64,000 nucleotides of DNA from an uncultured Verrucomicrobiae bacterium (GCA_963751395.1 CAVVUC010000002.1:1172029-1236028); one strand, 5' to 3'. Positions 1,769 to 54,627 are shown, numbered from the stretch's first letter. Notes: generated by a model from the sequence alone, not told the origin. A program made the numbers and translations.

Positions 1769-3157
1769 CTACGTTGCTTCGCCGAGCAAATCGTAAACTT
1801 GTGTGCCGGTGATGCGCACGTCGATGAATTCGCCTACGGGGGCGGGGCGGTTCAGGATCACCTGGCCGTCGATGTCGGGCGCGTCGGAGGCGCTGCGGGC
1901 GGCGAGGGGTTTCTCGACCAGGACGCGAAGCCGCGAGCCGACCTGCGCCGCGGAGATTTCGCGCGCGATTCTCTGCTGAAGTTTCATGGCGCGCTTGAAG
2001 CGGGCGGTTTTGATTTTCGCCGGAATCTGGCCGGGCATCTTCGCGGCGCGGGAGCCTTCTTCCTGCGAGTAGGTGAAGACGCCGAGGCGCTCGAAGCGGA
2101 CGGTTTCGATGAACTGGAGGAGCGACTCGAAGTGCTGGTCGGTCTCGCCCGGGAAGCCGACGATGAAGGTCGTGCGCAATGCGATGCCGGGGATGCCTGC
2201 GCGGATGCGGGCGATAAGGTTCTCGATGTGTTCGCGGGATGTCTCGCGTCGCATGAGATCGAGCATGTCGCCGTGGATGTGCTGCAACGGCATGTCGATG
2301 TAGCGCGCGACCTTGTCGCACCCGGCAATCGTCGCGATGAGTTCGTCGCTCCAATGCGCCGGGTGGGTGTAGAGGAGGCGTATCCAAAACTCGCCGCCGA
2401 TCTTTTGCAGTTCGCGCAGCAGCTTCGTCAAAGTCGGGCCGCGGCTTGAGTCCACTGGCTGGGTCGGGTTGGCGCGCTGTTCCCACAGGTCCATGCCGAA
2501 GTAGGTCGTGTCCTGGCTGATGAGGTTGATTTCCTTCACGCCCTCGGCGACCAGCGCGCGGACTTCGGCGACGACCGATTCGATGGTGCGGCTTCGATGC
2601 TTTCCGCGCATCTGCGGGATCACGCAGAAGCTGCACGGGTGATTGCAGCCCTCGGCGATTTTCACATAGGCGGTGTGCGACGGCGTGAGGCGGAAGCGGG
2701 GCGTGTCGTAATCCGGAATGTAAACGGGTTTGCGCGTGACGAGGTTCAGGGGCTCCCAGTGCGGATCGGTGAGTGAATGGTGATTGGTGAGTGGTGAATG
2801 GTCAGAGGGTTGGGCGAGGATTTGTGCGACGATTTTCCCAGCATCGGCCACCTGGTCCAGGCCGATGAAGGCATCGACCTCGGGCATCTCGCTCTGGAGT
2901 TGCGTGGAAAAGCGCTGCGCCATGCAGCCGCTCACGATCAGCTTCTGGCCCGGCTTTTTGCGCAGGCCGCGCTGCTGGTGTGCTTCGAGGATGGCTTCGA
3001 TGGACTCTTTCTTCGCGGAGTCGATGAAAGCGCACGTGTTCACGATGAGCACGTCGGCTTCCTCGGCGTCGGAGGTGAGCTGCATGCCGTGCTGGAGAAC
3101 TCCACCAAGCATGATCTCGGCATCGACGAGATTCTTCGCGCAGCCGAGGCTGACCAT
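1769..3157 (-). CDS. rimO: ribosomal protein S12 methylthiotransferase RimO
   Basis: ORF 1769..3205 carries the RimO N-terminal MTTase motif VSLGCAKNLVDAE, the radical-SAM CxxxCxxC (CSFCVIP) and a TRAM-like C-terminus. The true start is probably the internal Met (MVSLGC...) at 3157. The 16 codons upstream, and a linker insert (SDHSPLTNHHSLTDPHW, about 2768-2805), are encoded by heptamer tandem repeats. Confidence 0.85.
   Translation of the reverse strand: MVSLGCAKNLVDAEIMLGGVLQHGMQLTSDAEEADVLIVNTCAFIDSAKKESIEAILEAHQQRGLRKKPGQKLIVSGCMAQRFSTQLQSEMPEVDAFIGLDQVADAGKIVAQILAQPSDHSPLTNHHSLTDPHWEPLNLVTRKPVYIPDYDTPRFRLTPSHTAYVKIAEGCNHPCSFCVIPQMRGKHRSRTIESVVAEVRALVAEGVKEINLISQDTTYFGMDLWEQRANPTQPVDSSRGPTLTKLLRELQKIGGEFWIRLLYTHPAHWSDELIATIAGCDKVARYIDMPLQHIHGDMLDLMRRETSREHIENLIARIRAGIPGIALRTTFIVGFPGETDQHFESLLQFIETVRFERLGVFTYSQEEGSRAAKMPGQIPAKIKTARFKRAMKLQQRIAREISAAQVGSRLRVLVEKPLAARSASDAPDIDGQVILNRPAPVGEFIDVRITGTQVYDLLGEAT
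2768..2805. repeat. single-arm GAATGGT-family heptamer tandem array inserted in frame in the rimO inter-domain linker
   Basis: ggtgagtgaatggtgattggtgagtggtgaatggtcag encodes SDHSPLTNHHSLTDPHW on the minus strand. It uses the same unit family as the 30301-30380 hairpin. Confidence 0.8.
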
Positions 3158-3166
3158 GCCGACCTT

Positions 3167-3205
3167 GGTGATTTTGGAATTTTGATTTTCGATTTTGGAT
3201 TTCAC
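3167..3205. repeat. single-arm GATTTTG heptamer tandem array, translated as the apparent N-terminal extension of rimO
   Basis: ggtgattttggaattttgattttcgattttggatttcac. It uses the same unit as the 21505-21591 element. No obvious partner arm. Confidence 0.8.
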
Positions 3206-4098
3206 TCAATCAGGACGCCGGGCGGCTCGTAGGGAACAGGTTGCCCGTCTCTTGTTAATATCACTGCGTCTTTGTCCCGGATTTCGATCCAGAATTTTGC
3301 GCCTTTGAAAGTCAGTGGACGCTCGTTGGGATAGAGCCAGTCGTTGAAGATGGGCGGGGAACCTTGCGCATCTTTCGTGATTCTCACCCAGGTTTTGGTG
3401 CGTGGTTGTAGCGTGACTGCTCTTTCCAAGCTCGGCGTCGGAGAAGACATCGGTGGAACGGTCAGGTCGGACGACCTCACTGGTTCGGCTCGCCGAACTT
3501 CGACGTTGTCGATCATCTGCGGTGTTGCGGCAGGAGTCGCCGAGGGTTGGGGGACTGGAATGGCGACGCGTTCCGGCAAAGCCACGACGGGAGTGGGCGA
3601 GGGGATGGCAGGCACTTCCTTTGGTGGCGTTGCGGCGGGAGTCGGAGAAGACACGGAACCGGTGGATGCGATTTTGCTTCCGGGGGTTTCGATTTTTCCG
3701 AGATTGATCCGCTGGAGATTGATGACAAAATCCATGACAACCGCGCCGCCCACGAGCACGACCGCGCCGATGATGAGCGGCCTCCAAAACTTCCAGTTGA
3801 TCCGGTTCACGGAGTTGACCGGCGCAGGCTTGTTGCTGAGGTATTCGTAATCGCCGCTGCCGACCGGGTTCGGATTCTCAAATGCCATGACGAACTCGGA
3901 GACATCGACGCCCAAATACTTCGCGTAAATCACCAGGAACCCTCTCGCGTAAGTGATGCTTGGGAAGTTTGTGAAGTCGTCCTTCTCAAGCGCGGTAATC
4001 TGGTCCGGTCGAATCCTCGTCACATGCGAGGCTTCTTCGATGGAAATCTGATTCCTCAGCCGCGCTTCACGCAGCTTTTTGCCGACAGTTGCAACCAT
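3202..4098 (-). CDS. rodZ: RodZ-like cytoskeleton protein (N-terminal XRE-type HTH, transmembrane segment, proline-rich linker, C-terminal DUF4115)
   Basis: N-terminal HTH LREARLRNQISIEEASHVTRIRPDQITALE, one hydrophobic transmembrane segment, a P/T/S-rich linker and a C-terminal motif KTWVRITKDAQG...KGAKFWIEIRDKDAV typical of the RodZ C-domain. Confidence 0.7.
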   Translation of the reverse strand: MVATVGKKLREARLRNQISIEEASHVTRIRPDQITALEKDDFTNFPSITYARGFLVIYAKYLGVDVSEFVMAFENPNPVGSGDYEYLSNKPAPVNSVNRINWKFWRPLIIGAVVLVGGAVVMDFVINLQRINLGKIETPGSKIASTGSVSSPTPAATPPKEVPAIPSPTPVVALPERVAIPVPQPSATPAATPQMIDNVEVRRAEPVRSSDLTVPPMSSPTPSLERAVTLQPRTKTWVRITKDAQGSPPIFNDWLYPNERPLTFKGAKFWIEIRDKDAVILTRDGQPVPYEPPGVLIE

Positions 4099-4108
4099 AT
4101 TGATTTCC

Positions 4109-6523: not shown

Positions 6524-6624
6524 AGTAGTCTTAAATCCAAATTTGGAAATTTGAATCTGAAACTCCCGCCTTCGATAAGGGCGGATTTCTCAAATCAGCT
6601 CCGCTTTAACCACGAAACTTCATC

Positions 6625-9928: not shown

Positions 9929-10690
9929 TCACTTCGGGTTCACGACGGTGTTCGTCGTTCCCAGCCAGCCATTGGCGGCATTTTGCGTGGAAAAAATGTC
10001 GCCCGGTGAAGACCCGCCGTTGGGGCCGGTGATTGTCAGCGTCGATGGATTGGCTTTCACAAACGCGCCGCTGATGTCCGTGCGAATGACGATCGCGCCC
10101 GTCCCCTTCCACACGCCGCCCTTCAAGGTCGCGTCCTTCTCGTATTTGTGGCTGGATTCCCCGCCCGCTGCGAAGCCATTCGCGAGGAGCGGCAGCGAGG
10201 AGTTCGACGTGTCGTTCAGCCCGAGAACGTAGGCCCATTCGTTTTCGCCAGCGGCCAGCGTCAGGTTGGGCGTGTCCTGCGGCGGGTTGTCGATCTGCTC
10301 GTCGGGCGGAGTGGCGCTGCACCATGCCGAACGCGGGAGCCAGAAGATTTTCTCCGACTGAAGGTAAGTCGGAAAAAGCTGCGCGAAGGCCGTGTTCGAG
10401 TCGGAGACCTGAGTGGTTGTCGGTTTGCCGTTCGTGAGCGTGTAGCTCGGAAACAGCCCGTTGTTGTCGCCCGCGTAGATTTTCAGCGCGAGGCCGATTT
10501 GCTTGGCGTTGTTCAGCGCGAGCGTCTGAGCCGCTCTTACTTGAACGCCCTGCATGGCGGGAAGCGCGATGCCGGCGAGGACTGCGATGATCGAGATCAC
10601 CACGAGCAGCTCGATCAGCGTAAAAGCCATCGAGCCATTTTTTGACAAGGCCGGGAACGCCGGCTGGTTGATTGGAGTGGATGTTTTCAT
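9929..10690 (-). CDS. prepilin-type N-terminal cleavage/methylation domain protein (pseudopilin/T2SS GspG-like)
   Basis: N-terminal [24 protein letters not shown] is a canonical class III signal and pilin hydrophobic helix. The start codon is ambiguous (Met at 10702, 10690 or 10630). Confidence 0.7.
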
Positions 10691-16894: not shown

Positions 16895-17122
16895 ATGATG
16901 TTGAAGACAATTCCCGGCGTGCAGTCCGTGACGATCGGCCCTGTGCTTTCGTCGCATCGGGCGGAAGTCGATTCGTCCAGCGACCTGGCGCTCGTGATTC
17001 AGTTCCCGAACGAACAGGCTCTGCGAAACTACGAAAAGAATCCGACCCACCAAAAAGCCGTGAAGCAAGTGCTTCTGCCGCTCGTCCGGAAATTCGTGGT
17101 TTATGATTTTGTGAATCGCTGA
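16895..17122 (+). CDS. Dabb-like stress-responsive dimeric alpha/beta-barrel protein, apparently N-terminally truncated
   Basis: 75 aa. IPGVQSVTIGPVLS...LALVIQFPNEQALRNYEKNPTHQKAV...VVYDFV matches the C-terminal two-thirds of the Dabb fold. An in-frame stop lies at 16841 and no alternative start supplies the first beta strand. Confidence 0.4.
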   Translation: MMLKTIPGVQSVTIGPVLSSHRAEVDSSSDLALVIQFPNEQALRNYEKNPTHQKAVKQVLLPLVRKFVVYDFVNR

Positions 17123-17156: not shown

Positions 17157-18107
17157 ATGAAATTCCCTCCGCTCGATTTTTCCAAAATCCGCACCTACGC
17201 GCTTGAGGAACGCGCCAACAAAGTCGCTGTTGCGGACTTCGCGCGGGTCCACGAAAGCGGTGGAAGCTTTGCGGACTTCCTCGAAAAACTCCCGAACTTC
17301 CTCGCCGCCGCTGATTTCAAGAAAGTCGTGGCCGCCATCGTGGCCGCCGTGCGCACGGACCGACCGGTCCTCCTGATGATGGGAGCGCATCCGATCAAGT
17401 GCGGGCTGAATCCGCTCATCGTCGATCTGATGAGACGCCGGGTGATCTCCGCAGTCGCGTTCAATGGCGCGGGAGCGATCCACGATTTCGAAACGGCCTT
17501 TCAGGGCGAGACGAGCGAGGACGTTCAACGCGGTTTGGACGACGGTTCATTCGGCATGGTCGATGAAACACCGCGCTTGATGAACGCGGCCATTGAGGTT
17601 GGCGTGCGGCGTGGCTTGGGTGCCGGCGAGGCGCTCGGGCGCGCGATTGCGGACGGCGCATTTGTGAACCGCCACTTGAGCATCCTGAACACCGGCATCG
17701 AAATGAACGCGCCCGTCACCGTCCATATCGCAATCGGCACGGACATCATTCATCAGCATCCAACCACGAGCGGCGCGGCGCTCGGCGAGGCGTCGTATCG
17801 CGACTTCCAGCGATTCGCCTCGGTCGTCGCGCAACTCGAAGGCGGCGTCGTGTTGAACATCGGCAGCGCCGTCATCATGCCCGAGGTTTTTTTGAAAGCT
17901 CTCACCATCGCGCGCAACCTCGGCAACACGGTAAGCAACTTCACCACCGCGAACTTCGACATGATCCGGCACTATCGCCCATCCGAAAACGTCGTTCGCC
18001 GCCCGACACATCTCGGCGGCCAGGGTTTCTATATCGTCGGCCACCATGAGTTGATGATTCCGCTGCTATTCGCTGCGGTCGTCGAGGAGTTAAGAATTAA
18101 GAGTTAG
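17157..18107 (+). CDS. deoxyhypusine synthase-like (DS family) protein
   Basis: 316 aa. Segments PVLLMMGAHPIKCGLNPLIVDLMRRRVISAVAFNGAGAIHDFE and VLNIGSAVIMPE parallel the DHS segments VFLGYTSNLISSGIRE...VDVLVTTAGGVEEDL and ILGGGVVKHH. This rests on remembered DHS motifs only. The C-terminal codons ELRIKS* are encoded by the left arm of a heptamer hairpin. Confidence 0.4.
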   Translation: MKFPPLDFSKIRTYALEERANKVAVADFARVHESGGSFADFLEKLPNFLAAADFKKVVAAIVAAVRTDRPVLLMMGAHPIKCGLNPLIVDLMRRRVISAVAFNGAGAIHDFETAFQGETSEDVQRGLDDGSFGMVDETPRLMNAAIEVGVRRGLGAGEALGRAIADGAFVNRHLSILNTGIEMNAPVTVHIAIGTDIIHQHPTTSGAALGEASYRDFQRFASVVAQLEGGVVLNIGSAVIMPEVFLKALTIARNLGNTVSNFTTANFDMIRHYRPSENVVRRPTHLGGQGFYIVGHHELMIPLLFAAVVEELRIKS

Positions 18108-18172
18108 AAGTTAAAAAACGTCATCGACTCAAAACTGCTGTCCTTAATTCTTAACTCATAAGTCTTAACTTT
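18087..18172. repeat. heptamer-tandem inverted-repeat hairpin (AAGAATT/AAGAGTT/AGAAGTT versus AATTCTT/AACTCAT/AAGTCTT)
   Basis: gagttaagaattaagagttagaagttaa, a 27-nt spacer, then ccttaattcttaactcataagtcttaactt. The left arm encodes the last 6 codons plus the stop of the DHS-like gene, and the right arm ends 10 nt before the rfaE ATG. Confidence 0.9.
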
Positions 18173-18182
18173 TCGCCTTTCC

Positions 18183-21321: not shown

Positions 21322-21504
21322 ATGGGAGTACCAAAACGCAAGACATCGAAAATGCGCCTTCGGACGCGCAAAGCCGCCAACCGCTGGCACGCACCTCAAC
21401 TTGTCAAGTGCCCGCAATGCGGCAGCCGCCTGCGCGCCCACACCGCCTGCCCGTCGTGCGGCTACTACAAGGGCCGTCAGGTTCTCACCATCGAAGCAGC
21501 CTAG
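21322..21504 (+). CDS. rpmF: 50S ribosomal protein L32
   Basis: MGVPKRKTSKMRLRTRKAANR...CPQCGSRLRAHTACPSCGYYKGRQV is canonical L32 with a zinc ribbon. Confidence 0.9.
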   Translation: MGVPKRKTSKMRLRTRKAANRWHAPQLVKCPQCGSRLRAHTACPSCGYYKGRQVLTIEAA

Positions 21505-21591
21505 TGATTTCCGATTTTAGATTTTTGATTTTCGACCTGCGAAAAGCAGCGCGCACTTGAAATCCAAAATCCAAAATCCAAAATCCAAAAT
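21505..21591. repeat. heptamer-tandem inverted-repeat hairpin (left arm GATTTCC/GATTTTA/GATTTTT/GATTTTC; right arm GAAATCC + AAAATCC x3)
   Basis: Seen directly: tgatttccgattttagatttttgattttcga, a 23-nt spacer, then gaaatccaaaatccaaaatccaaaatccaaaat. It exactly fills the rpmF-stop to plsX-ATG gap. Confidence 0.9.
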
Positions 21592-27400: not shown

Positions 27401-27882
27401 CGCCCGGCGCAGTTGCATGGACGGAAGCTCCCGAGACTTTTGCGACTCTGGCGAAGCAGCGGTTCCGCTGGGCTTTCGGAACGCTGCAGTGTTTGTGGAA
27501 GCATCGCGACCTGATCTTCAACCCGCAATACAAGGCGCTCGGCTGGTTCAGTCTTCCGAGCACCTGGTTCTTCCAGATCATCCTCGTCGCAATCACGCCG
27601 GTGGTGGATTTTCTTTTGATTTCGTCGCTGCTCGTTGGTGGCGGCGGGGCGATGTGGGCCTACTTCGTCACGTTCCTTGCGACGGATTTGCTGCTTGCCA
27701 TGATGGCCTGTGCGCTTGATGGCGAGAAGCTGCGCAAGTCGTGGATCATCATCCCGATGCGCCTGATTTATCGGCCGCTGCTCAGCTACGTCATCTGGCG
27801 CTCGATCTTCAAGGCCGTGAAAGGCGCGTGGGTCACCTGGGGAAAACTGGAGCGCACCGCCTCGGTGCCGGCAAGAGCGTGA
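24490..27882 (+). CDS. multidomain membrane protein: GH18-like glycoside hydrolase domain + CE4 polysaccharide deacetylase (NodB) domain + processive GT2 glycosyltransferase (PgaC/IcaA/cellulose-synthase-like)
   Basis: N-terminal TM, then a GH18-type domain (LGFYVDWDANSY; GGVVIDWEQ with DxxDxDxE-type catalytic residues; AYGYDW). A CE4 domain follows (ITFDDGPDP...HEIGNHTYTH). A GT2 domain follows (ILIAAYNE...VLVIDDGSSDDT...LLDADT...QRFRWAFG, the QxxRW motif) with about 4 C-terminal TM helices. Confidence 0.8.
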   Translation: MSGLDSNGQVKPFVFMDPAGKRWPRLRLALLICGVLLFICVVWFIESLFVKPELRLPASVRKLKGQLKELQHQNALAQGPDKSIVWQKFYPQSQAARERLAKLREQLHSKPQKHFGEIRLGFYVDWDANSYQSLLTHAGQLTHVCPEWMTVVDGLGNVRVDEDLRIERLAVSKGLVLMPMLNNLVEDTWAPEPVENLASGPEDRRNKFIVTLLSHLEDARAGGVVIDWEQIDPSYKKQLAAFLTKIASALHAVDKELWLVVPMGDEIESLDLEALAGTVDHFIAILHDENSDTDAPGPIASQDWFDGWLQVINGYGEPGQWIAAIGAYGYDWTSGSKKAETISFADAMSRASYSGIDKVEIKEPSFNATFSYSEPLGEHTVWFLDAITFLNQLRSVRAQGIGGMAISRLGMEDPQIWDVLSFKDAWKLDDAAINRLKFIKTSDTITNVGQGEIVTVDDTQDNGVRDVQLDPGGRFSATYRADADLQRGFPTYPVLYHQGSGGEHDVTITFDDGPDPKWTPQILDILKQRGVKAVFFLVGRQSEQYPGLVRRIVAEGHEIGNHTYTHANLAELSTRELELEMNATQRLVEAITGLSTTICRPPYNADSRPTQLAELRPLKLLQDDLGYLLVLENIDPEDWSRPGADMILQRIKQLRKLGSIILLHDAGGDRRQTVEALPGIIDWLQTRGDRIVSLGTLLNIPRDELMPPVKKNVDPVTRLVSGTGFRIWHVVEQFGWAFMIVATGLIVLRTIIVAALAWYHHQKTKSVVAEPFSPPISILIAAYNEAKVIQATLRSVVDTDYAGDIEVLVIDDGSSDDTAGEVGKAAFLDKRIRLLQQTNRGKAEALRNGLAHAKNKVIVLLDADTHFERGTLGALVQPLSDPKVGAVSGHARVGNMRTFIARCQSLEYICGFNLDRRAYSEWNCITVAPGAISAFRKAAIEEAGGFSPDTLAEDTDLTLSLHRCGYRIDYTPGAVAWTEAPETFATLAKQRFRWAFGTLQCLWKHRDLIFNPQYKALGWFSLPSTWFFQIILVAITPVVDFLLISSLLVGGGGAMWAYFVTFLATDLLLAMMACALDGEKLRKSWIIIPMRLIYRPLLSYVIWRSIFKAVKGAWVTWGKLERTASVPARA

Positions 27883-29117
27883 TGGGATTTCAGATTGCAG
27901 ATTGGAAAGCCTGGCATCGCTTCGCTCGTTGCAGCAGATTTCAGATTGCCCGGGTGCGCACGAAGCGAGGATTTCTTCAATCTTCAATCTTCAATCTTCA
28001 ATCTGTATTGGCCGTCCTCCTTCTTTCCGCGTGCCAGGAGCCGGCGCCCCTGCCCGTCGATCCGAACGCGCCGAAGAAACTCGTCGTCCCTGACAAAGGC
28101 GCCTACACCGGAGCCTACATCGATTTCGGCGATACCGAGGACGACGTCACGCTCGAGGCGATCGAGGACTTCGAGACGCTTGTCGGCAAGCACCAGGCGA
28201 TCGTCGCATCGTCGAGTTACTGGGGCGAGCAGACGTTTCCCGCCGCCAACGTCAGCCTCATCTGGCGGCACGGCTCGATTCCTCTGGTCTTCTGGTCGCC
28301 GTGGGACAAGCCCTACGTCGAGAACGAGGACGACGATGCTCCCGTGTGGTATGCCGCCGCCAACAAGTATTCGCTTTGGAACATCATCGACGGGAAGTGC
28401 GACGACTACATCGACAAATGGGCCGATGGCGCGAAGCAGTTCGGCCAGCCGATGTTCGTTTCATTCTGCAATGAAATGAACGGCATCTGGTTTCCGTGGT
28501 CCGGCATTTTTTACGGAGCCGATGCCGATGTGCCCGGCGAGAAGGACAAAAAAATGGGGCCGGAGACGTTCAAGCGAGCGTGGCGGCATGTGGTCGATCG
28601 GGTTCGCGCTCGCGGCGCCACGAACATCCTCTGGGTTTTCCACCTCATGAACTACTCCATCCCGCAGGACAACTGGAACTACGCGAAGCAGTATTATCCG
28701 GGGCCGGATTACGTGGACTGGCTTGGGCTCAGCGTTTACGGCATGCAGGTTCGCGAGGAACACTGGTCGGAGTTCTCGCAAATCATGGTCGATGGCAAGC
28801 TCACCGGCGGCCTGCTCGACTGGCCTTACGAGGAGTTGTGCCGGATGGATTCAACAAAACCGATCATGCTCGCGGAATGGGGTTGCGGCGAGTTTCCGGA
28901 GTTCGGCGACAAGGCGCGATGGATTCGGGAGGGGTTCGAGGAAATGAGAAAGCGTCCGCGCATCAAGGCCGCGGTGTTCTGGCACGAGCGCTGGCAGAAC
29001 GAAGAGGAGCACTACAGCAACCTTCGCGTGAACTCGTCGCCGGAGTCGCTCGATGCTTACCGCAAAGGCGTGTCCGATCCATTCTGGCTCGACAAGCCGA
29101 TCCTCAAGCCGCGCTAA
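27882..29117 (+). CDS. GH26-like glycoside hydrolase lipoprotein (start uncertain)
   Basis: Lipobox-type signal VLAVLLLSAC. The catalytic region is FVSFCNEMNGIWFPWSG (GH26/GH5 NE-acid motif) and IMLAEWG (nucleophile). A start at ATG 27882 would overlap the upstream stop (TGATG) and translate the heptamer hairpin. In-frame TTG at 28008 is an alternative. Confidence 0.6.
   Translation: MGFQIADWKAWHRFARCSRFQIARVRTKRGFLQSSIFNLQSVLAVLLLSACQEPAPLPVDPNAPKKLVVPDKGAYTGAYIDFGDTEDDVTLEAIEDFETLVGKHQAIVASSSYWGEQTFPAANVSLIWRHGSIPLVFWSPWDKPYVENEDDDAPVWYAAANKYSLWNIIDGKCDDYIDKWADGAKQFGQPMFVSFCNEMNGIWFPWSGIFYGADADVPGEKDKKMGPETFKRAWRHVVDRVRARGATNILWVFHLMNYSIPQDNWNYAKQYYPGPDYVDWLGLSVYGMQVREEHWSEFSQIMVDGKLTGGLLDWPYEELCRMDSTKPIMLAEWGCGEFPEFGDKARWIREGFEEMRKRPRIKAAVFWHERWQNEEEHYSNLRVNSSPESLDAYRKGVSDPFWLDKPILKPR
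27883..28006. repeat. heptamer-tandem inverted-repeat element (CAGATTG units; CAATCTT x4 on the opposite arm) with a nested dyad
   Basis: gggatttcagattgcagattgg...gatttcagattgcc...gatttcttcaatcttcaatcttcaatcttcaatctg. Confidence 0.9.
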
Positions 29118-30300: not shown

Positions 30301-30380
30301 GGAATGTGAATGGTGATTGGTGAATCGTGAATGGCGGAGGTGCGATACTCATTCACGCATTCACCAATCACCATTTACGT
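30301..30380. repeat. heptamer-tandem inverted-repeat hairpin (GAATGTG/AATGGTG/ATTGGTG/AATCGTG versus CATTCAC/CAATCAC/CATTTAC)
   Basis: ggaatgtgaatggtgattggtgaatcgtgaatgg, a 13-nt spacer, then ctcattcacgcattcaccaatcaccatttacg. It sits between the GT start and the acetyltransferase stop. Confidence 0.9.
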
Positions 30381-30965
30381 CTTCAACTCCTTTACAATCA
30401 CCGCAGGGTTGCCGGCGACGATGACGTTTTCCGGGACGCTCTTCGACACGACCGATCCGGCGGCGATGACGGAGTTCTCGCCGATGGTCACGCCTTTCAA
30501 AATCACCGCGTTCATGCCGATCCAGACGTTGTCACCGATTCGAACAGGTTTGGCGGATATCGGCGGGCGTTCCGGGCGCGGCTTGCTGTAGGGTGAGATT
30601 GCCATCGCGTCGATGCGGCGCAAGGCCGGTTCAAGCGGATGAAAATCCGAATCGGCGATGCCGACATTCCACGAGATCAAACAATACGAGCCGATCTCGA
30701 TCGACTCCTCGGCCATGATTAACGCGCCGTTCAGCAGCGTATAATCGCCGACCTTGCAGTGACCGTTCACGCCGATTGAAAACGAGACACCGGCGTAGCA
30801 GGAGACGCATTTGCCCAGTTCAACGGCGGGGTCTTTCTTGCTCTTGATGAAGCGAAAAATTTGGGTGGTTTCGCAATAAAGCCCCTCGTCCCATACGACG
30901 TTTGGCGGGATCGGATGGTGGTACCAATCGTCGTCGATGCGGCGGTCTGCGTTGATGTTGCTCAT
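30375..30965 (-). CDS. hexapeptide-repeat (LbH) acyl/acetyltransferase
   Basis: The C-terminal half has left-handed beta-helix hexapeptide repeats ([31 protein letters not shown]). Its last codons overlap the right arm of a heptamer hairpin. Confidence 0.75.
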
Positions 30966-33128: not shown

Positions 33129-33322
33129 GGCGAAATCCGAATGACGAATGACGAAGCCCGAAGAACTGACGGAAGCGCTGGTTTCGCCCTCACCTCAATC
33201 CTCTCCCAGCGGGAGAGGATCAAGGTGAGGGTCGGCGATGCAACCCGACGCCACGGCCTTTCTTCGTTCATTCCGACTTCGGGCTTGTTTCGTCATTCGG
33301 ATTTCGTCATTCGTCATTCGCC
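33129..33322. repeat. compound element: outer heptamer-tandem arms (CGAATGA/TCATTCG family) flanking a 48-bp GC-rich palindrome (ccctcacctcaatcctctcccagcgggagaggatcaaggtgaggg)
   Basis: Left arm gaaatccgaatgacgaatgacgaagcccgaag and right arm cttcgggcttgtttcgtcattcggatttcgtcattcgtcattcg. The central perfect dyad is ctctcccagcgggagagg. The element ends at the hemL ATG. Confidence 0.9.
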
Positions 33323-33325
33323 ATC

Positions 33326-35541: not shown

Positions 35542-36454
35542 AGAGCTTGATGCGCCGGTCGAGGAACGTGTAGGCGATGTCCACGGCGAGGTTGAGCACG
35601 ACGAGCAGCGCGCAATAGACGATGACCACGCCGCCGAGCAGAAAGCCGTCGCGGTTTTGAATCGAGTTCACGAAAAATCCGCCCGCGCCCGGGATGTTGA
35701 AAACCGTCTCGATGATGACCGAGCCGGTGAGGAGGTTCGCGGCGAGGGGGCCGAGAAAAGAGACGACGGGCAGGATCGCGACTTTGAGCGCGTGCTTGTA
35801 GATGATGCGCGATTCGGCGACGCCTTTCGCGCGCGCGGTGCGGACGAAATCGGAGCCGAGCACTTCGAGCATGCTCGTGCGCATCAGCCGCGCGATGTAG
35901 GCGACGTAGGGCGCTGCCAGGGTGAGCGACGGGAGCACGAGATCGCTCCAGCTTCCCCAGCCGCCGACGGGGAGCCAGCGCAGCTTCAATCCGAACAGGA
36001 GGATGAGCAGCGGCCCGGTGACAAAAGTCGGCGTCGAAATCGCCAGCAGCGCGACAAACATCGCCCCGGCGTCGGCCGGCGTGTCGCTGCGCACCGCCGC
36101 CCAGCTTCCAAGCCACACGCCGGCCGTCGTGGCGATGAGGAACGCGGCAAGGCCGAGCGTCGCGGAGACCGGCAGCGCCTGCGCCAGCAGTTCGTTCACG
36201 GAGCGGTTGCGATACTTCGTCGAGAGCCGCAGGTCGCCGCGTAGCAGGTCGCAAATGTAGTCGAAGTATTGCCGCGAGAGCGGGCCGTCGAGTTTGTACT
36301 TCGCAAGAAGCTGCTTCTCGATCTGGGGCGGTATTTTTCGTTCGCGATCGAACGGTCCGCCGGGCGCGAGCCGGATGAGGAAAAACGTGAACGACACCAC
36401 GCAGAACAGCACGAGCAGCATGGACGCGAAGCGGCGGAGGATGAAGGCGATCAT
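35534..36454 (-). CDS. ABC transporter permease, DppB/OppB-like
   Basis: 306 aa. MIAFILRRFASMLLVLFCVVSFTFFLIRLAPGGP is the typical DppB N-terminus, with a BPD_transp_1 fold. Confidence 0.8.
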   Translation of the reverse strand: MIAFILRRFASMLLVLFCVVSFTFFLIRLAPGGPFDRERKIPPQIEKQLLAKYKLDGPLSRQYFDYICDLLRGDLRLSTKYRNRSVNELLAQALPVSATLGLAAFLIATTAGVWLGSWAAVRSDTPADAGAMFVALLAISTPTFVTGPLLILLFGLKLRWLPVGGWGSWSDLVLPSLTLAAPYVAYIARLMRTSMLEVLGSDFVRTARAKGVAESRIIYKHALKVAILPVVSFLGPLAANLLTGSVIIETVFNIPGAGGFFVNSIQNRDGFLLGGVVIVYCALLVVLNLAVDIAYTFLDRRIKLYD

Positions 36455-36460
36455 CGGGAA

Positions 36461-36555
36461 AATGACGAATGAATGTCGAAGCCGGAATGTTCAATGACGA
36501 ATGCGCAAACGAACGGGCACATTCGGATTTCGTCATTCGTCATTCGGATTTCGTC
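36461..36555. repeat. heptamer-tandem inverted-repeat hairpin (AATGACG/CGTCATT family) with an inner dyad ccgaatgt...acattcgg
   Basis: aatgacgaatgaatgtcgaag...atttcgtcattcgtcattcggatttcgtcattt. The right arm encodes the C-terminus (EMTKSE) of the DNA MTase, and the left arm abuts the dppB-like start. Confidence 0.9.
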
Positions 36556-37373
36556 ATTTCAAAAAGTTCATCCGACAATCGCTTGCGCGCCTCCTTCAAA
36601 TACTCCTCGTCGATCTCGAAGCCGATGAACCTGCCAACGCCGCATTCCTTTGCGGCGAGCGCGGAGTGGCCGATGCCGAGAAACGGATCGAGCATCACGA
36701 GTCCGGCGCGCTGGCCGTGGAGCTTGATGCATTGCGTGGCGAGCGCGACCGGGAACGTCGCCGGATGCGGGCGCTCCCCGGCGCGGCTCTTGATCGTCTT
36801 GTAGGGAATGAACCAGTTGTTGCCGCGGCAGCGCCGGTCGCGCCCTTCGGTGTGGCCCCAGCGCGCGATGTTGCTCTTGTCCGAGTATGCGACGCCGATG
36901 GCGAGGCGGTCGAGTGTCACGAAGCCACTTTTCGTGAGATGGAAAAGATATTCGTGGCAGTCGGTGATGTAGCGCGGCGAGTTGATCGGCTTGAAATGCC
37001 CCGCCGAAATGTCCAGGCCGTCGCGAGTCGTCACGGTGATCGACTTGATCCAGTGGATCGTGTTTTGCAGCACGAAGAGCGGCCGGAGTTGCAGTACCAG
37101 CTCGTGCGGCAGCATCGGGTTCGCGGGCGCCGCGCCGACGTTGAGAAAAAACGAGCCGTCCGGTTTGAGCACGCGCTTGATCTCGGAGGCCCATTGCCCG
37201 CACCAGTGGAGATATTCCTCGCGCGCCGCGTCGTCGGAATACTTCGAATACGCGATGCCGAGATTGTAAGGCGGCGAGGTCACGACGAGATCGACCGACT
37301 CGCTCGCGAGCGCGCGCATCCCGGCGAGGCAATCGCCGTGATGCAGTTCGAATTCCGTGTTGGTTTCGGGCAT
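36540..37373 (-). CDS. DNA methyltransferase, beta-class amino-MTase (N4-C or N6-A; SPPY motif)
   Basis: From the internal Met: MPETNTEFELHHGDCLAGMRALASESVDLVVTSPPYN (D21-class MTase motif IV). The SAM-binding motif LDPFLGIGHSALAAKECGVGRFIGFEIDEEY is C-terminal, as in the beta permutation. The C-terminal codons EMTKSE* are encoded by a heptamer hairpin arm. Confidence 0.8.
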   Translation of the reverse strand: MPETNTEFELHHGDCLAGMRALASESVDLVVTSPPYNLGIAYSKYSDDAAREEYLHWCGQWASEIKRVLKPDGSFFLNVGAAPANPMLPHELVLQLRPLFVLQNTIHWIKSITVTTRDGLDISAGHFKPINSPRYITDCHEYLFHLTKSGFVTLDRLAIGVAYSDKSNIARWGHTEGRDRRCRGNNWFIPYKTIKSRAGERPHPATFPVALATQCIKLHGQRAGLVMLDPFLGIGHSALAAKECGVGRFIGFEIDEEYLKEARKRLSDELFEMTKSE

Positions 37374-37551
37374 GGCGGAATTGATTAAAGCGAAACGCGG
37401 GGCGGAACCAGCCGAATGTTCGTTTACGCAAAAACCGGCCCGCCGCAACCTGAATTGCTCGCCCGCCGGAAGCGTGCCGCACATTAGCCAGTGGCGCTGG
37501 CCTCCGAACCGCCATCCCAACCCACATCCGCCCCGGCAGGGCGCGGGAATG

Positions 37552-42531: not shown

Positions 42532-43665
42532 ATGCAAGTCCCTCTCCTCGATCTCAAGTTGCAATATCAACCGCTCCGAGAACAGATCCGCGCGGTATTC
42601 GACGAACTCGCCGACAGTCAGGCGCTGATTCTGGGGCCGCAGGTCGAGCAGCTCGAACAGTCGGTGGCGGCTTACTGCGGAGCGAATCACGCGATCGGCG
42701 TGTCTTCAGGTACTGACGCCGAACTCGCGATTCTGATGGCGCTTGGGATCGGGCCGGGGGACGAGGTGATCACCACGCCGTACACATTTTTTGCGACAGC
42801 AGGCTGCATCGCCCGCGTCGGCGCGAAGCCGGTCTTCGTCGATATCGATCCGGCGACCTACAACATTTCTCTGCCGCTGTTGAAAGCGGCTTTGGAAAAA
42901 TCGGATCGCGTGAAGGCGATCATCCCGGTGCATCTGTTTGGCTGCTGCGCGGACATGGACGCGATCCTCGCACTCGCTCGCGAATACGGCGTGCCCGTGC
43001 TCGAAGACGCGGCGCAGGCTCTCGGCAGCCAGCATCCGCTCGGCGGCGCGGGTGCGATGGGCGAGTTCGGCTGGTTCTCGTTTTACCCGACGAAAAACCT
43101 CGGCGCTTTCGGCGATGCGGGCATGGTGACTTGCCGGGACGCGGAGATGGCGGGGAAGATCAAGGCGCTCCGCAATCACGGCATGGAGCCGCGGTATTTT
43201 CACAAATGGATCGGAGGCAACTTCCGCATCGACGCGATCCAGGCCGCCGTCTTGAACATCAAGCTGCCGCATCTGGACGCCTGGTCGGCGGCGCGTCGCG
43301 AGCACGCGAATTTTTACCGCGAGGAATTCGCGAGGGTGGAACTGAACGGGACGATTGCGCTGCCGGTCGAGCCTTACGCATTGAGCGGTCTCGCGAATCA
43401 CCACATCTACAACCAGTTCGTGATTCGCGCGCCGCGCCGCGATAAACTGCGCCAGCACTTGCAGAAGCACGGCGTCGGTTCGGAAGTTTACTATCCACTC
43501 GCGCTGCATCTACAGGAGTGCTTTGCGGATCTGGGCGCACGGGAAGGGGATTTCCCCGAGGCGGAGCGGGCGAGCCGGGAAACGCTGGCGCTGCCGATTT
43601 TTCCGGAACTTACGCGCGAGCAGCAGAGCTACGTCGTGGAGACGATCCGCGCGCTTTATCAATAA
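42532..43665 (+). CDS. DegT/DnrJ/EryC1/StrS-family sugar aminotransferase (PLP-dependent)
   Basis: 377 aa. LLDLKLQYQPLREQI..., AIGVSSGTDAE and FSFYPTKNLGAFGDAGMV (PLP-lysine region) are typical of ArnB/WecE/PseC-type enzymes. Confidence 0.85.
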   Translation: MQVPLLDLKLQYQPLREQIRAVFDELADSQALILGPQVEQLEQSVAAYCGANHAIGVSSGTDAELAILMALGIGPGDEVITTPYTFFATAGCIARVGAKPVFVDIDPATYNISLPLLKAALEKSDRVKAIIPVHLFGCCADMDAILALAREYGVPVLEDAAQALGSQHPLGGAGAMGEFGWFSFYPTKNLGAFGDAGMVTCRDAEMAGKIKALRNHGMEPRYFHKWIGGNFRIDAIQAAVLNIKLPHLDAWSAARREHANFYREEFARVELNGTIALPVEPYALSGLANHHIYNQFVIRAPRRDKLRQHLQKHGVGSEVYYPLALHLQECFADLGAREGDFPEAERASRETLALPIFPELTREQQSYVVETIRALYQ

Positions 43666-43713
43666 GGCGTTCGCAGGGTCGCGCTTCCGGGGCGCGTGCG
43701 TTGCCCGGCCGGC

Positions 43714-44325
43714 TTACTCGGCAGCCGTGGTCGCGCCCTCGCCCACCATGTAACGGGTGAAGCGGCGGATGATCATGTTCTCGCCCAGCTCGGCGATCTT
43801 GCTGTTCAGCAGGTCCTTGATCGTTTGATCGGGATTCTTGATGAACGGCTGGTCGAGCAAACAGACGCCGGCGTAGAACTTGTCCACTTTTCCCTCGACG
43901 ATCTTGTCCACGATGTTCGCAGGTTTGCCTTTGACCTGCTCCCGGTAAATCTCGCGTTCCTTTTCCAGTTCGGCTGCGGGAACTTCCTCGCGTGTCACGT
44001 AGAGCGGATGCGCTGCGGCGATGTGAAGCGTGATGTCTTTTACGAACTCGCGGAAAATCTCGTTCTTGGCCACGAAATCGGTTTCGCAATTGACTTCAAC
44101 CAGAACACCGACCTTGCCCTGCAAATGAATGTAGGAGGCGACGACGCCTTCCTTCGTGGCTCTCGTGGATTTCTTCGCCGCTCCTGCAATGCCCTTGGTG
44201 CGGAGAATCGCCTCGGCTTTTTCCAAGTCGCCGCCTGCTTCGCCCAGGGCACGCTTGCAGTCCATCATGCCGGCGTTGGTCTTTTCACGGAGTTGTTTGA
44301 CGAGTTGTGGATTGATTTCGGACAT
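43714..44325 (-). CDS. tsf: translation elongation factor Ts
   Basis: From the internal Met: MSEINPQLVKQLREKTNAGMMDCKRALGEAGGDLEKA (UBA-like N-domain), then the EF-Ts core (about 204 aa, short form). The long-ORF N-extension is implausible. Confidence 0.85.
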   Translation of the reverse strand: MSEINPQLVKQLREKTNAGMMDCKRALGEAGGDLEKAEAILRTKGIAGAAKKSTRATKEGVVASYIHLQGKVGVLVEVNCETDFVAKNEIFREFVKDITLHIAAAHPLYVTREEVPAAELEKEREIYREQVKGKPANIVDKIVEGKVDKFYAGVCLLDQPFIKNPDQTIKDLLNSKIAELGENMIIRRFTRYMVGEGATTAAE

Positions 44326-44334
44326 AGAAAAGTT

Positions 44335-44420
44335 GAGAGGTTGAAGGGTTGAGCTGTTGAGAAAAGATCGGGGCGTCGAATTTAAGAGTTCAACTTCCCA
44401 ACGCCCAACTGGTTTCGAGG
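44335..44420. repeat. heptamer-tandem inverted-repeat hairpin (GTTGAGA/GGTTGAA/GGGTTGA units)
   Basis: gttgagaggttgaagggttgagctgttgag...agttcaacttcccaacgcccaac, between the tsf start and the rpsB stop. Confidence 0.85.
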
Positions 44421-44422
44421 TG

Positions 44423-45154
44423 CTATTCCCCGACGCCTGCGAGTTCTGCTTCCTCGCGCTTCGAACCTTCGCCGCTGGCCGATACGATCGCATCAACCAA
44501 CTTCTGAAGCACGATGCGAATGGCACGAATGGCGTCGTCGTTGCCGGCAATCGGGTAATCGATCAACTCCGGATCGGCGTTCGTGTCAACGATTGCCACC
44601 GTTGGAATGCCGAGCCGTTTCGCCTCGGCGACGGCGATTGATTCACGCTGGGTGTCGATGATGATGAGCGCATCGGGCAGTTTCTGCATCTCGCGGATGC
44701 CTTCGAGATTGCGCTTGAGCTTTTCCCCTTCGCGGCGGATGGCCGCGAGTTCCGACTTGCCCATTTTGCTGTAATCGGGCGACTTCTCGATCTCCTCGAT
44801 GAACTTCATGCGCGCGATGCTCTTGCGGATGGTCGCGAGGTTCGTGAGAGTGCCGCCGAGCCAGCGCTGGTTGACGTAGAACTGTCCACAGGCTGCAGCC
44901 GCTTCCTTGATTGCTTCCTGCGCCTGCTTCTTGCAGCCGACGAAGAGCACCTTGCCGCCGCGCCGGGCGAGATCGCCGAGGAACTGTGTGGCGGCATCGA
45001 GCTGTTTTGCAGTGACTCCGAGGTTGATGATGTAGATCGCGTTGCGTTTCTCAAAAATGTACGGCTTCATTTTTGGATTCCAGCGTTTGGTCTGATGACC
45101 AAAGTGGACTCCAGCCTCGAGAAGTTCCGTCATTGTTTCTGTGGTAGTTGCCAT
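44423..45154 (-). CDS. rpsB: 30S ribosomal protein S2
   Basis: [18 protein letters not shown]...[14 protein letters not shown]...RWLGGTLTN...[29 protein letters not shown]. The start is at M10 or M17 of the long ORF. Confidence 0.9.
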
Positions 45155-45244: not shown

Positions 45245-45793
45245 TCATTCCACCGAACCCTCCGCGTGCGTTTCGATGAAGCGCGCGTAGAGCCAGCAGA
45301 GGTCGGAGAGCCGGTTCAGGTAGCGGATGATTTCCGGGTTCACTCCGCCGGCTTCCTCTCCGAGGCGGACAACCCGCCGTTCTGCGCGCCGGCACACGGT
45401 GCGGGCGACGTCGAGCGCGGCTGCGGAAGCGGTCGCGCCGGGAGTTGCCCAGTGCTTGAAGCTGATCTTGTGATTCTTCTCGAGGTCGTCGATCAAGGCC
45501 GTGAGCCGGTCCACCATCGGGGACGTGACAAATTCAAAGCCGCCTTTGGCATAGCGCCCGCGGTCCTCGTCGAGGACGGCGAGCTCGCCCATCAGAATGA
45601 CCAGTTCCTTTTGGATCGCAAAGACCGGCTCTTCGATGAAGGCATCGCCGACGATGGCGCGCGCGACACCGAGCGCGGAATTCAATTCATCGACCGCGCC
45701 ATACGCCTCCACCCGGACATCCGTCTTGGCAACGCGCCTGTTGTACATCAACGCGGTCGTTCCGTCGTCACCGGTTTTCGTAGCGATTGACAT
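45245..45793 (-). CDS. ATP:cob(I)alamin adenosyltransferase, PduO-type
   Basis: TKTGDDGTTAL...VEAYGAVDELNSALGVA...IQKELVILMGELA is the PduO/MMAB family signature. Confidence 0.8.
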   Translation of the reverse strand: MSIATKTGDDGTTALMYNRRVAKTDVRVEAYGAVDELNSALGVARAIVGDAFIEEPVFAIQKELVILMGELAVLDEDRGRYAKGGFEFVTSPMVDRLTALIDDLEKNHKISFKHWATPGATASAAALDVARTVCRRAERRVVRLGEEAGGVNPEIIRYLNRLSDLCWLYARFIETHAEGSVE

Positions 45794-45800: not shown

Positions 45801-45871
45801 AATGTTGAGGGGTTGGGAAGGTGAGTAGTTGAGGATTTTTCTCAACGGCTCAACAACTCAACCCCTCAACG
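45801..45871. repeat. heptamer-tandem inverted-repeat hairpin (GTTGAGG family)
   Basis: aatgttgaggggttgggaaggtgagtagttgagga ttttt ctcaacggctcaacaactcaacccctcaacg, between the PduO-type gene start and the rpoC stop. Confidence 0.9.
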
Positions 45872-45876
45872 AATTA

Positions 45877-53861: not shown

Positions 53862-54039
53862 AGTATGGCGCTTTGTTGGTTGTTTCTCCGCGAGTTCACG
53901 GGTGTGACTTCGACTGGAGAAAAGGGTTATCCGTTCAACTTGGTCCGTGTTGGATACAGACAAAGAGAACGAAAGCCGCCGCCAGACGCGCTGGCGGCGA
54001 TTTTCGTTCCACTCGACTTTTCAAAAATGGTTCGGTTCA

Positions 54040-54110
54040 GGTTCGCTGATTCCTGCTGAAAATGGGTCTGAACGTCAAACACAAATCGGCGCGCGGCAAG
54101 CGAAATATTT
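54040..54110 (-). terminator. candidate rplL-rpoB intergenic attenuator/terminator hairpin
   Basis: On the minus strand, the GC-rich dyad gcggcggcggcgaaatatttcgcttgccgcgcgcc is followed by a T-rich tract (gatttgtgttt), between the rplL stop and the rpoB start. This is the classic position of the L7/L12-beta attenuator. Confidence 0.35.
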
Positions 54111-54142
54111 CGCCGCCGCCGCGCACGATAGTGTTTGTCGTT

Positions 54143-54526
54143 TTACTTGATTTCGACCTTGGCTCCAGCCGCCTCGATCTTTTTCTTGATCTCTTCGGCT
54201 TCTTCCTTGGTGACGCCTTCCTTGAGCGGCTTGGGCGCGCCTTCGACAAGGGCTTTCGCTTCGGCGAGACCGAGACCGGCCACCGCTGCGCGGACTTCCT
54301 TGATGACGGCGATCTTGTTGCCGCCGGTTTCCTTGAGGATCACGTCAAATGACGTTTTCTCTTCGGCAGCAGGAGCCGCCGCGCCTGCGGGCGCACCGGC
54401 TGCAGCCACGGCCACGGGAGCCGCTGCGCTGACGCCCCACTTTTCTTCGAGGGCTTTGACGAGTTCGGCGACTTCAAGAACGGTCAGGCCGCTGAGTTGT
54501 TCCACTAACGTGTTGGTATCTGCCAT
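54143..54526 (-). CDS. rplL: 50S ribosomal protein L7/L12
   Basis: 127 aa, [32 protein letters not shown]...KVEIK. Confidence 0.95.
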
Positions 54527-54530
54527 CTGT

Positions 54531-54627
54531 AAATTATGAATTATGAATTATGAGTTATGAATGAAATCCGCCGCGGCATCGCCGCGCAATTTTCACTTCA
54601 TTCTTCATTTTTCATCCTTCATCCTTT
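54531..54627. repeat. heptamer-tandem inverted-repeat hairpin (ATGAATT/ATGAGTT versus TTCATTC/TTCATCC)
   Basis: aattatgaattatgaattatgagttatgaatgaaat, a GC-rich spacer, then tttcacttcattcttcatttttcatccttcatcc. It lies immediately upstream of the rplL start codon. Confidence 0.9.

Follow-up and report, generated by a model that had tools for sequence, protein, structure and literature searches.

Paired heptanucleotide arrays at gene boundaries in a Chthoniobacterales genome: probable slippage-born microsatellites with a single surviving orientation

A 64,000-nucleotide stretch of DNA from an uncultured Verrucomicrobiae bacterium (GCA_963751395.1 CAVVUC010000002.1:1172029-1236028; hereafter the window) carries nine intergenic loci, here called A to I, each consisting of an AT-rich tandem array, a spacer and the reverse-complement array, together with two single arrays inside the gene rimO. 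We consider it somewhat probable, at roughly 55%, that these elements are paired heptanucleotide microsatellites that are born and reshaped by replication slippage and of which one orientation survives at gene boundaries. The evidence comprises an excess of arrays with periods 7 and 8, their inverted pairing, marks of slippage within arms, fast turnover at fixed gene junctions, and a consistent polarity relative to the neighboring genes. Homologues of RimO and PlsX indicate that the window belongs to the Chthoniobacterales (Verrucomicrobiota); their best matches, at 82-85% identity, come from metagenome-assembled genomes labelled Chthoniobacteraceae, Chthoniobacter, 'Spartobacteria' or Udaeobacter. 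For comparison we sampled 80 loci around plsX from species-representative genomes (L004-L083), 80 loci around a PduO-type gene from metagenomes, and 3 loci around rimO, giving a set of 163 related loci and 1.9 Mb; totals of hairpins and arrays are quoted over ~2 Mb. Neighboring genes were identified by Pfam scans, which in the window covered ~38 open reading frames (ORFs).

All eleven sites in the window were inspected, and nine of them are intergenic. Arrays were defined by at least 12 of 14 consecutive lag matches, a criterion applied alike to every period, and the null model consisted of dinucleotide shuffles in 100-nt blocks, by which AT-rich islands are preserved. Eleven period-7 arrays were found in the window, compared to a shuffle mean of 0.5 and a shuffle maximum of 2, which bears out the claim of an earlier note, made from the sequence alone, that the nine intergenic loci and the two rimO arms are real. 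Under the same criterion periods 5, 8, 10 and 11 gave 0-2 arrays each, and periods 6 and 12 were elevated through codon repeats. Tandem Repeats Finder reported period-7 arrays at 8 of the 11 sites, namely both rimO sites (2773-2802 and 3170-3202), locus B (21513-21532 and 21560-21591), locus C (27886-27904 and 27974-28004), locus D (30302-30334 and 30350-30375), locus E (33138-33155 and 33289-33324), locus F (36529-36558) and locus I (54532-54562 and 54596-54626); it also reported a period-8 array at 45841-45872 and no array for loci A and G. Loci A, G and H are irregular rather than clean heptamer arrays, with a lag-7 identity of 0.17-0.65, and H is nearer to period 8.

The arms of most loci are able to form substantial hairpins. 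Relative to shuffles, the fold z-scores of the transcribed strand are -4.2 for A, -3.8 for B, -6.4 for D (-7.9 for its antisense strand), -7.7 for H and -6.7 for I, and locus E, which lies between divergent genes and was therefore folded on the + strand, reaches -9.4. Thus the hairpin architecture that had been attributed to the whole family is strong at six of the nine loci, while C (z -1.7), F (z -2.6) and G (z -1.5) fold weakly and, as stated above, the arrays of A, G and H are irregular. When one arm is shifted by 7 nt against the other, pairing is about equally good at B, C, E and I, and H and G pair in a single register only. The unit variants of the two arms differ at B, C and I, which results in 1-2 mismatches per unit. 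The description of the spacers as GC-rich and often dyadic likewise holds in part, with a G+C content of at least 0.60 at 6 of the 9 loci and a dyad of their own, judged by eye, at four (B, C, E and I).

Units differ between loci, and several recur at a distance, as had been observed, namely GATTTTG (3.2 and 21.5 kb), GAATGGT (2.8 and 30.3 kb), AATGACG (33.1 and 36.5 kb) and GTTGAGG (44.3 and 45.8 kb). The window units (these, CAGATTG and others) contain no G3 tract. The GA(A/T)T core that had been proposed to unite them is found in 7 of the 9 window units (1.6 expected) and is much weaker across the relatives, where it occurs in 22 of 103 units (10.3 expected) and where the enriched words are instead TTGA and TGAA (z ~8).

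The same architecture, in part with the same units, occurs across Chthoniobacterales and other Verrucomicrobiota, and the elements are consequently not 'genome-specific', as the earlier note had supposed. Window-like unit families in the relatives include AATGACG, CAGATTG, GTTGAGA, GATTTTC and GTGAATC. Units of 8 nt (for example GGTTGAGA, CGTTGAAG and TTTCCTGA) are about as common there as units of 7 nt, with 67 period-8 arrays versus 59 period-7 arrays in L001-083, so that the term heptamer is not to be taken strictly. We searched for an inverted partner within 250 nt of each array, using an additional direct copy as the control: 80 of 176 arrays had an inverted partner, compared to 16 in the direct-copy control, and together they formed 55 hairpin loci. 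The distribution is patchy, in that 55 of 83 Chthoniobacterales loci lack any period-7 array, and the window holds 1.7 per 10 kb. Diversity is high as well, with 103 distinct canonical units among 203 arrays.

Turnover at fixed junctions is rapid. Five different units are found among species upstream of coaD and four in the fabH-tatD spacer, and the content of the yceD-rpmF spacer likewise differs by species, consisting of other units, REP-like palindromes or nothing. In the rpmF-plsX spacer we found several types of hairpin with heptamer or octamer arms, REP-like palindromes of two kinds and, in a spacer of 39 nt, no element whatever. Strong structure (z <= -3) is present in 22 of 74 rpmF-plsX spacers, whose sequences are unrelated; z lies above -2 in 48 of the 74, and 11 spacers are too short for a hairpin. 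A conserved hairpin after rpmF as a general rule was rejected on these counts. Where orthologous arrays can be compared (L027, L035 and L051), the arrays have diverged by indels and the flanks are conserved and alignable. Within the window, one arm of B and one arm of C consist of 4.4-4.6 perfect copies and their partners are heterogeneous, leaving one mismatch per unit; this is a signature of recent slippage within an arm, at the cost of pairing. Both observations agree with the earlier description of a slippage-prone structured repeat.

The elements are closely fitted to gene boundaries. At all nine loci the arm nearest to the downstream start codon ends 0-15 nt before that codon, and the upstream stop codon lies inside the other arm at A, D, F and H and within 0-3 nt of the arm at B, C and G. 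With stop and start at or near the arm edges, the hairpin is essentially the whole spacer. That the elements abut or overlap starts and stops was part of the initial description, as was the observation that arms encode C-termini, which applies to the ORF 17157..18107, the acetyltransferase and the DNA methylase, the stops of which lie inside arms A, D and F.

This placement has a polarity. Among the 53 hairpin loci with a non-zero G-C skew (of 55), the G-rich arm comes first in 47 and second in 6; because the element is an inverted repeat, the polarity holds for both strands. In the sense strand, G-rich arrays outnumber G-poor ones by 29:4 at or beyond a stop codon, and G-poor arrays prevail by 32:17 just ahead of a start codon; unpaired arrays keep the bias (9:3 after a stop and 14:9 before a start). 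The G-poor arrays end at a median of 5 nt upstream of the start codon. In the window, 7 of the 9 start-proximal arms are free of ATG, GTG and TTG, with a G count of 0-2, and stop triplets occur in at least two frames of the stop-proximal arm at 7 of the 9 loci. The host lineage is essentially without Shine-Dalgarno sites: a motif of this kind precedes 1 of 35 predicted starts in the window, a set that includes rplL, rplJ, rplA, tsf and rpsB, and 2 of 45 independently called genes in relatives (L001-L003). G is mildly depleted upstream of starts, at 22-24% versus 29-31% overall.

From these patterns we infer in-place birth and reshaping of the arrays through replication slippage, with orientation filtered by selection at gene boundaries. 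An element would consist of two short tandem arrays, mostly of 7-nt and sometimes of 6- or 8-nt units, on opposite strands around a short and usually GC-rich spacer, so that either strand could fold into an imperfect hairpin of 25-35 bp. Slippage would homogenize the units within an arm and alter their copy number, and since the arms are periodic, slippage of one would leave several registers in which the two could pair, allowing the hairpin to survive a change in copy number. Elements would be dispensable at any given site and would persist in narrow intergenic spacers in a single orientation. The G- and purine-rich arm, often with TGA, TAA or TAG, would be placed so as to cover or follow the upstream stop codon; neither 7 nor 8 being divisible by 3, a stop triplet in an array closes every frame within three units, and an array at the 3' end of a gene therefore cannot add a long tail. 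The G-poor arm, with few start and stop triplets, would be placed directly before the next start codon, where its strand could serve as a leader or be translated through, as in the linker and N-terminus of rimO. An intercistronic role of the stems in polycistronic RNA is a more tentative proposition: in such a transcript the stem bridges stop and start and would act as an intercistronic structure, with a double-stranded substrate for RNase III, a 3'-end stabilizer, a weak attenuator or a coupling device as candidate roles, and a canonical terminator not among them. The true terminators that some relatives have at the site of hairpin H would lend this role positional support.

Several observations weigh against the slippage account. 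The polarity before start codons is only ~2:1, and at fixed base composition the G-rich strand has no excess of stop triplets taken together (43 units versus 40 expected); TGA alone is enriched there, at the cost of TAA and TAG. The codon logic may thus be a by-product of a composition rule and not its cause. Unit families recur in the window beyond what 103 unit types would lead one to expect, and some recur across genomes, which means that purely local birth is insufficient and that some copying from site to site, or selection acting on the sequence of the units, has to be invoked as well. Locus B may have grown from a conserved small inverted repeat (GATTTTGC..GCAAAATC; exact in 8 of 80 relatives and more loosely matched in 31), an origin that is only suggestive because the nearest relatives are without that block. 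Finally, the sole same-strain sequence that we found is identical to the window. This is a 1.2-kb short-read contig (L164; Logan, run ERR10755939), found via a look-up with EF-Ts, which matches 43188-44376 at 100% identity and terminates inside the spacer of hairpin G; the other nearest relatives stand at 82-85% protein identity. Exact-protein look-ups for plsX and rplL, in which strain variants were sought, returned no match, and a metagenome scan with the PduO-type protein returned distant relatives only, at 75% identity or less.

The hairpins could instead be adaptive RNA elements, selected as intercistronic or 3'-end structures that act as RNase III sites, stabilizers, weak attenuators or translational couplers; in the coupling variant a terminating ribosome would melt the first arm and so free the leader in the second. 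This is possible, if on balance improbable. In seven co-directional gene pairs, including rpsB-tsf, rpmF-plsX and the junction after rpoC, imperfect stems of 25-35 bp and -21 to -40 kcal/mol do sit precisely between the stop and the start. Several relatives have canonical GC-rich hairpins with T-runs at the rpoC-pduO junction, where the window has hairpin H, and the strongly structured 22 of 74 rpmF-plsX spacers, unrelated in sequence, could be read in the same way. There is also a precedent in the heptamer-array hairpin of the Haemophilus influenzae hmw 5' untranslated region, where cleavage by RNase III raises expression (PMC12721329). Strand-specific selection at the RNA level nevertheless left no sign in the eight co-directional loci: sense and antisense folding energies show no consistent difference, the antisense fold being clearly more stable in 4 of the 8 and two others differing by <2 kcal/mol. 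No compensatory pattern was seen between arms, and at B, C and I an arm has been homogenized at the expense of pairing. Most orthologous spacers, moreover, have no hairpin, and hairpins also stand between divergent genes where there is neither a stop codon nor a 3' end (locus E and L001). The suggestion that the elements are terminators did not hold up, as none of the nine loci combines a GC-rich stem of >=5 bp with a subsequent T-run (the terminal T stretch is only TTTT at A, F and G, and TTT at H), and a normal terminator that does satisfy this definition lies nearby at 53976-54000.

Mobility offers a different explanation for the recurrence of units, in which non-autonomous elements of a MITE- or REPIN-like kind, with heptad-periodic terminal inverted repeats, insert at gene boundaries. 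Unit families do recur at distant sites of the window and in other genomes, including the mixed TTCGTCA/TTCGGAT pattern; same-unit loci tend to neighbor each other (1.5-3 kb apart in the window and 250 nt in L016); and the REP-like palindromes in the same spacers of relatives indicate that these sites accept insertions. We nonetheless regard it as unlikely, given that the spacers of same-unit loci are unrelated (E versus F, z -0.2), flanking direct repeats are nowhere longer than 4 nt, each copy has its own arm lengths and unit order, and there are 103 unit types; a MITE was rejected for the first two of these reasons. No transposase or RAYT-type gene was found among the ~38 Pfam-scanned ORFs, the rest of the window lying outside that scan. 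We give little credence to the idea that the arrays are bound by a protein, such as a cold-shock-domain or OB-fold protein, each monomer of which would read ~7 nt of single-stranded RNA or DNA. The strict short period, the GA(A/T)T core of the window units and the TTGA and TGAA words of the relatives would suit such a reader, and CspB is known to bind heptamer direct repeats with one protein per unit (PMC4679880). The single heptad-reading protein envisaged in the earlier note is, however, hard to reconcile with 103 distinct units and with periods of 6, 7 and 8 mixed in one lineage; arms are usually base-paired, which competes with single-strand binding, and the word enrichment is inflated because units are related by descent. 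Least plausible of all is that these are contingency loci, in which gain or loss of a 7-nt unit shifts the frame or promoter spacing and switches neighboring genes on or off. Its points of support are that 7 is not divisible by 3, that the genes for a GH26 lipoprotein (27974-28004) and rimO (3167-3205) have perfect arrays in or at their 5' ends, and that promoter-like hexamer pairs occur inside arms at B, F and I, although AT-rich sequence yields such pairs by chance. The neighbors are mostly housekeeping genes (rplL, tsf, plsX, rpoC and rimO) for which on/off switching would be harmful, and most arrays are outside ORFs; Rehm et al. rejected phase variation for the heptamer repeats of Xanthomonas in 2015 on the same grounds (PMC4692102).

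A bolder version of the functional argument, which we consider doubtful, is that periodic-arm hairpins form a gene-boundary module in bacteria that dispense with Shine-Dalgarno sites. The first arm would halt ribosomes in every frame and prevent the loading of Rho, and the second would supply the G-free, start-codon-free leader needed by Shine-Dalgarno-independent initiation. The stem, opened by a terminating ribosome or by RNase III, would set the expression ratio of the neighboring cistrons, which slippage of the 7-nt units would in turn adjust like an inherent rheostat. If this were true, it would provide a function for the 35-year-old puzzle of the cyanobacterial and Xanthomonas heptamer repeats, which have the same polarity.

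Established element classes were also considered. Rfam returned 0 matches at the gathering score. With the limit relaxed to E = 1 the nine loci still had none, and the only weak matches were to miRNA-precursor models, on a separate long hairpin at 54748-54832. CRISPR was rejected on the basis that the units are of 7 nt, contiguous and arranged as two inverted arrays, as against the required minimum of three direct 23-50-nt repeats with unique spacers of similar length. REP and REPIN elements were rejected because the arms are tandem arrays that are not self-complementary, show a strong strand asymmetry in G and C, and conform to no family consensus. The initial exclusion of CRISPR, REP and known Rfam families was therefore sound. 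REP, BIME and REPIN elements do resemble the window loci in being dispersed intergenic hairpins with two inverted arms around a spacer, located between co-directional or convergent genes and often in highly expressed operons; each REP, however, is an imperfect palindrome of 20-40 nt with a conserved family sequence and is spread by a RAYT transposase (IS200/IS605-like). Intrinsic terminators share the position of a stem-loop right after the stop, and some relatives have one where the window has hairpin H. The window stems differ from them in being AT-rich and mismatched, in having no run of at least 5 T, in occurring also between divergent genes, and in abutting the next start.

In many bacterial genomes no long microsatellite is as over-represented as the heptanucleotide repeat. 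The STRRs of cyanobacteria have been known since 1990, and we know of no established function for the dispersed repeats. The closest counterparts of the window elements are the GGGAATC repeats of Xanthomonas and the GGGGA(C/T)T repeats of Nostoc, which are likewise tandem 7-nt units, mostly of ~4 copies, strongly intergenic, and of the same polarity relative to ORFs (PMC4692102). Two Xanthomonas genomes hold ~185 arrays each, including 70 and 75 convergent inverted pairs that could form stem-loops; the repeats vary in length between species, and pairs occupy the same gene junctions in related species with differing lengths and sequences (PMC4692102). Xanthomonas and Nostoc each have one dominant unit with a GGG tract that forms G-quadruplexes, whereas the lineage of the window has dozens of AT-rich units with neither G-tracts nor the capacity for G-quadruplexes, periods of 6-8, an inverted partner for 80 of 176 arrays, and a phylum without Shine-Dalgarno sites as its background. 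As convergent pairs with the same polarity have already been published for Xanthomonas (PMC4692102), the window elements are a variant of the described heptameric repeats and not the new class that they had initially been taken for. Cyanobacterial STRRs and the TAACTGA repeats of Beggiatoaceae and cyanobacteria are also dispersed intergenic heptamer arrays, of 2-6 copies and patchy across lineages, which often end a few nucleotides from a start codon and occasionally enter ORFs in the stop-free orientation; unlike the window elements, they are overwhelmingly direct single arrays, with one inverted set among 170 in a Beggiatoa genome and one dominant unit, and CspB binding has been discussed for the TAACTGA repeats (PMC4679880). 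The only experimentally dissected heptamer-array hairpin that we found is that of H. influenzae hmw1A and hmw2A, in which an (ATCTTTC)n array in the 5' untranslated region forms one arm of a long hairpin by the start codon and is cut by RNase III (PMC12721329). It differs in being a single phase-variable virulence locus with at least 10 repeats and not a dispersed family, in having a non-repetitive G-rich region as its partner arm, and in placing the pyrimidine-rich arm first, a polarity opposite to that of the window hairpins.

In the literature we found no report of these repeats in Verrucomicrobia, and the present results extend the heptamer-repeat phenomenon to the soil Verrucomicrobiota, a little-studied phylum and the third in which it is seen. 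This phylum includes relatives of Udaeobacter, which are dominant in many soils. The form seen here is especially clean, with many AT-rich units, 80 of 176 arrays paired, strong polarity at gene ends, and a host without Shine-Dalgarno sites, and this combination yields testable ideas on why one orientation only survives; the polarity rule in a lineage of this kind is the most useful lead. There are practical effects as well. The end of the same-strain contig inside hairpin G suggests that inverted arrays break short-read assemblies, and the arrays shift predicted starts and stops and add encoded tails and linkers to proteins, both of which matter for the quality and annotation of metagenome-assembled genomes in Verrucomicrobiota.

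The individual loci differ in their fit to the neighboring genes. Locus A (18087..18174), with arms at 18087-18119 (GAGTTAAGAATTAAG...) and 18142-18174 and a spacer of 22 nt, lies between the ORF 17157..18107 and a PfkB-family kinase (ATG 18183); the left arm contains the TAG stop (18105-18107) of the former, and lag-7 identity among the irregular units is 0.61-0.65. Locus B (21505..21591) occupies the entire spacer between the rpmF stop (TAG 21502-21504) and the plsX ATG at 21592, with a left arm at 21505-21537 (GATTTYN x4) and a right arm at 21558-21591 (AAATCCA, 4.6 perfect copies). Locus C (27885..28005) has a left arm at 27885-27907 (CAGATTG type), a right arm at 27970-28005 (TCTTCAA, 4.4 perfect copies) and an additional copy at 27936-27949; it follows the stop (27880-27882) of a 1130-aa glycosyltransferase/deacetylase and precedes a GH26 protein. 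This protein resembles a lipoprotein, and with a GTG start at 27954 its N-terminus would be MRTKRGFLQSSIFNLQSVLAVLLLSAC; the right arm is then probably within the signal peptide, which would hold the perfect 4.4-copy TCTTCAA array, and one 7-nt unit gained or lost would shift the frame. An alternative start, TTG at 28008, would keep the array out of the coding sequence.

Locus D (30301..30380), with arms at 30301-30334 (GAATGGT type) and 30349-30380, is flanked by genes on the - strand; one arm holds the stop (30375-30377) of the hexapeptide acetyltransferase (30375..30965), and the ORF that comes next begins with an ATG at 30285. Locus E (33129..33322) has arms at 33129-33163 (GAATGAC type) and 33283-33322 and a spacer of 119 nt, and lies between a Band7/SPFH gene (start 33040, - strand) and a class-III aminotransferase (ATG 33326). 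The spacer contains a nested, different GC-rich palindrome (CCCTCACCTCAATCCTCTCCCAGCGGGAGAGGATCAAGGTGAGGG) at ~33190-33235. Locus F (36460..36558), with arms at 36460-36504 and 36519-36558 (AATGACG / TTCGTCA and TTCGGAT units), has the stop (36540-36542) of the N6/N4 DNA methylase 36540..37520 inside an arm and an ABC permease start at 36454. Locus G (44331..44412) has arms at 44331-44362 (GTTGAGG type) and 44386-44412 and lies between the rpsB stop (44423-44425) and the tsf start (44325), both genes being on the - strand. Locus H (45801..45871), with arms at 45801-45833 and 45840-45871 (GTTGAGG / CTCAAC type, ~period 8), contains the rpoC stop (45866-45868) in one arm and is followed by the start of the PduO-type adenosyltransferase at 45793.

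Locus I (54531..54627), with arms at 54531-54565 (AATTATG x4.4) and 54593-54627 (CTTCATC type) and a GC-rich apical hairpin between them, stops 4 nt upstream of the rplL start (54526, - strand), the rplJ stop being 210 nt away. Directly 3' of the rplJ stop is an additional member that had been missed, the 85-nt hairpin at 54748..54832, whose arms are hexamer arrays (sense CTCCTG... / CAGGAG...); its pyrimidine-rich arm comes first, which is the opposite polarity. The rplJ-rplL spacer as a whole, of 311 nt, is extremely structured (z -9.5) and also has a small hairpin at ~54722-54749 and a GC-rich hairpin at ~54672-54692. Between rplL and rpoB, 53976-54000 is a canonical GC-rich hairpin followed by a T-run, on both strands, at the classical position of the rplL-rpoB attenuator.

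Both rimO arrays lie on the - strand and are translated, as had been proposed for a linker insertion and an N-terminal extension. The array at 2768..2805 (GTGAATG on the + strand, CATTCAC in the rimO sense) encodes the linker ...SDHSPLTNHHSLT.... This linker is hypervariable across the relatives, and compared to five homologues it has 13 extra residues; several relatives have peptides that look heptamer-derived, for example ITNHESPITN. At 3167..3205 the repeat reads GATTTTG on the + strand and CAAAATC in the sense of rimO, and it encodes the N-terminal 12 residues (VKSKIENQNSKI), start codon included.

Other repeats were seen in the window and at the same junctions in relatives. No tRNA or tmRNA was found in the 64-kb window. 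Between the divergent ftsK (start 6523) and a mannose-6-phosphate isomerase-like gene (6625), a short AT-rich near-palindrome at 6530-6565 (AAATCCAAATTTGGAAATTTGAATCTGAAA) may be a minimal or decayed member of the heptamer-hairpin kind. The AT-rich intergenic region 62040-62150 holds two copies of a self-complementary sequence of ~22 nt (GAAGGGATTTCCAAATCCCTTC and GAAGGGATTTGGAAATCCCTTT), which are REP-like and not heptamer arrays. At the plsX junction, many relatives (L004-L083) have a block TTTTGCATTC-N12-15-GCAAAATC ~45 nt upstream of plsX, ending 9 nt before its ATG; the loose pattern is found in 31 of 80 relatives and the exact form GATTTTGCA..GCAAAATC in 8 of 80. The block can be read as a small inverted repeat or as TTGCAT-N17-CAAAAT, and the window has arrays of the same two words there. 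Two families of REP-like palindrome occupy the rpmF-plsX spacer, one with gtcatcccgagcgcagtcgagggatc... and the other with gtgggagcggcctttgcgccgcgaag... (L017, L030 and L051; L018, L019, L036, L045 and L047). Many Chthoniobacterales (L011, L017, L025, L026, L027, L035, L047 and L050) have a conserved pyrimidine-rich array of 8-nt units (TTTCCTGA TTTCCTGC TTTCCTGA) immediately before the rpmF start; this array is absent from the window. Lastly, apparent in-frame heptamer arrays are present within coding regions of more distant Verrucomicrobiota (L115 and L157 at ~17070-17110, and L100-L102 at ~10490-10600), an example being AAAGTCC x4 in an apparent Mur ligase gene.

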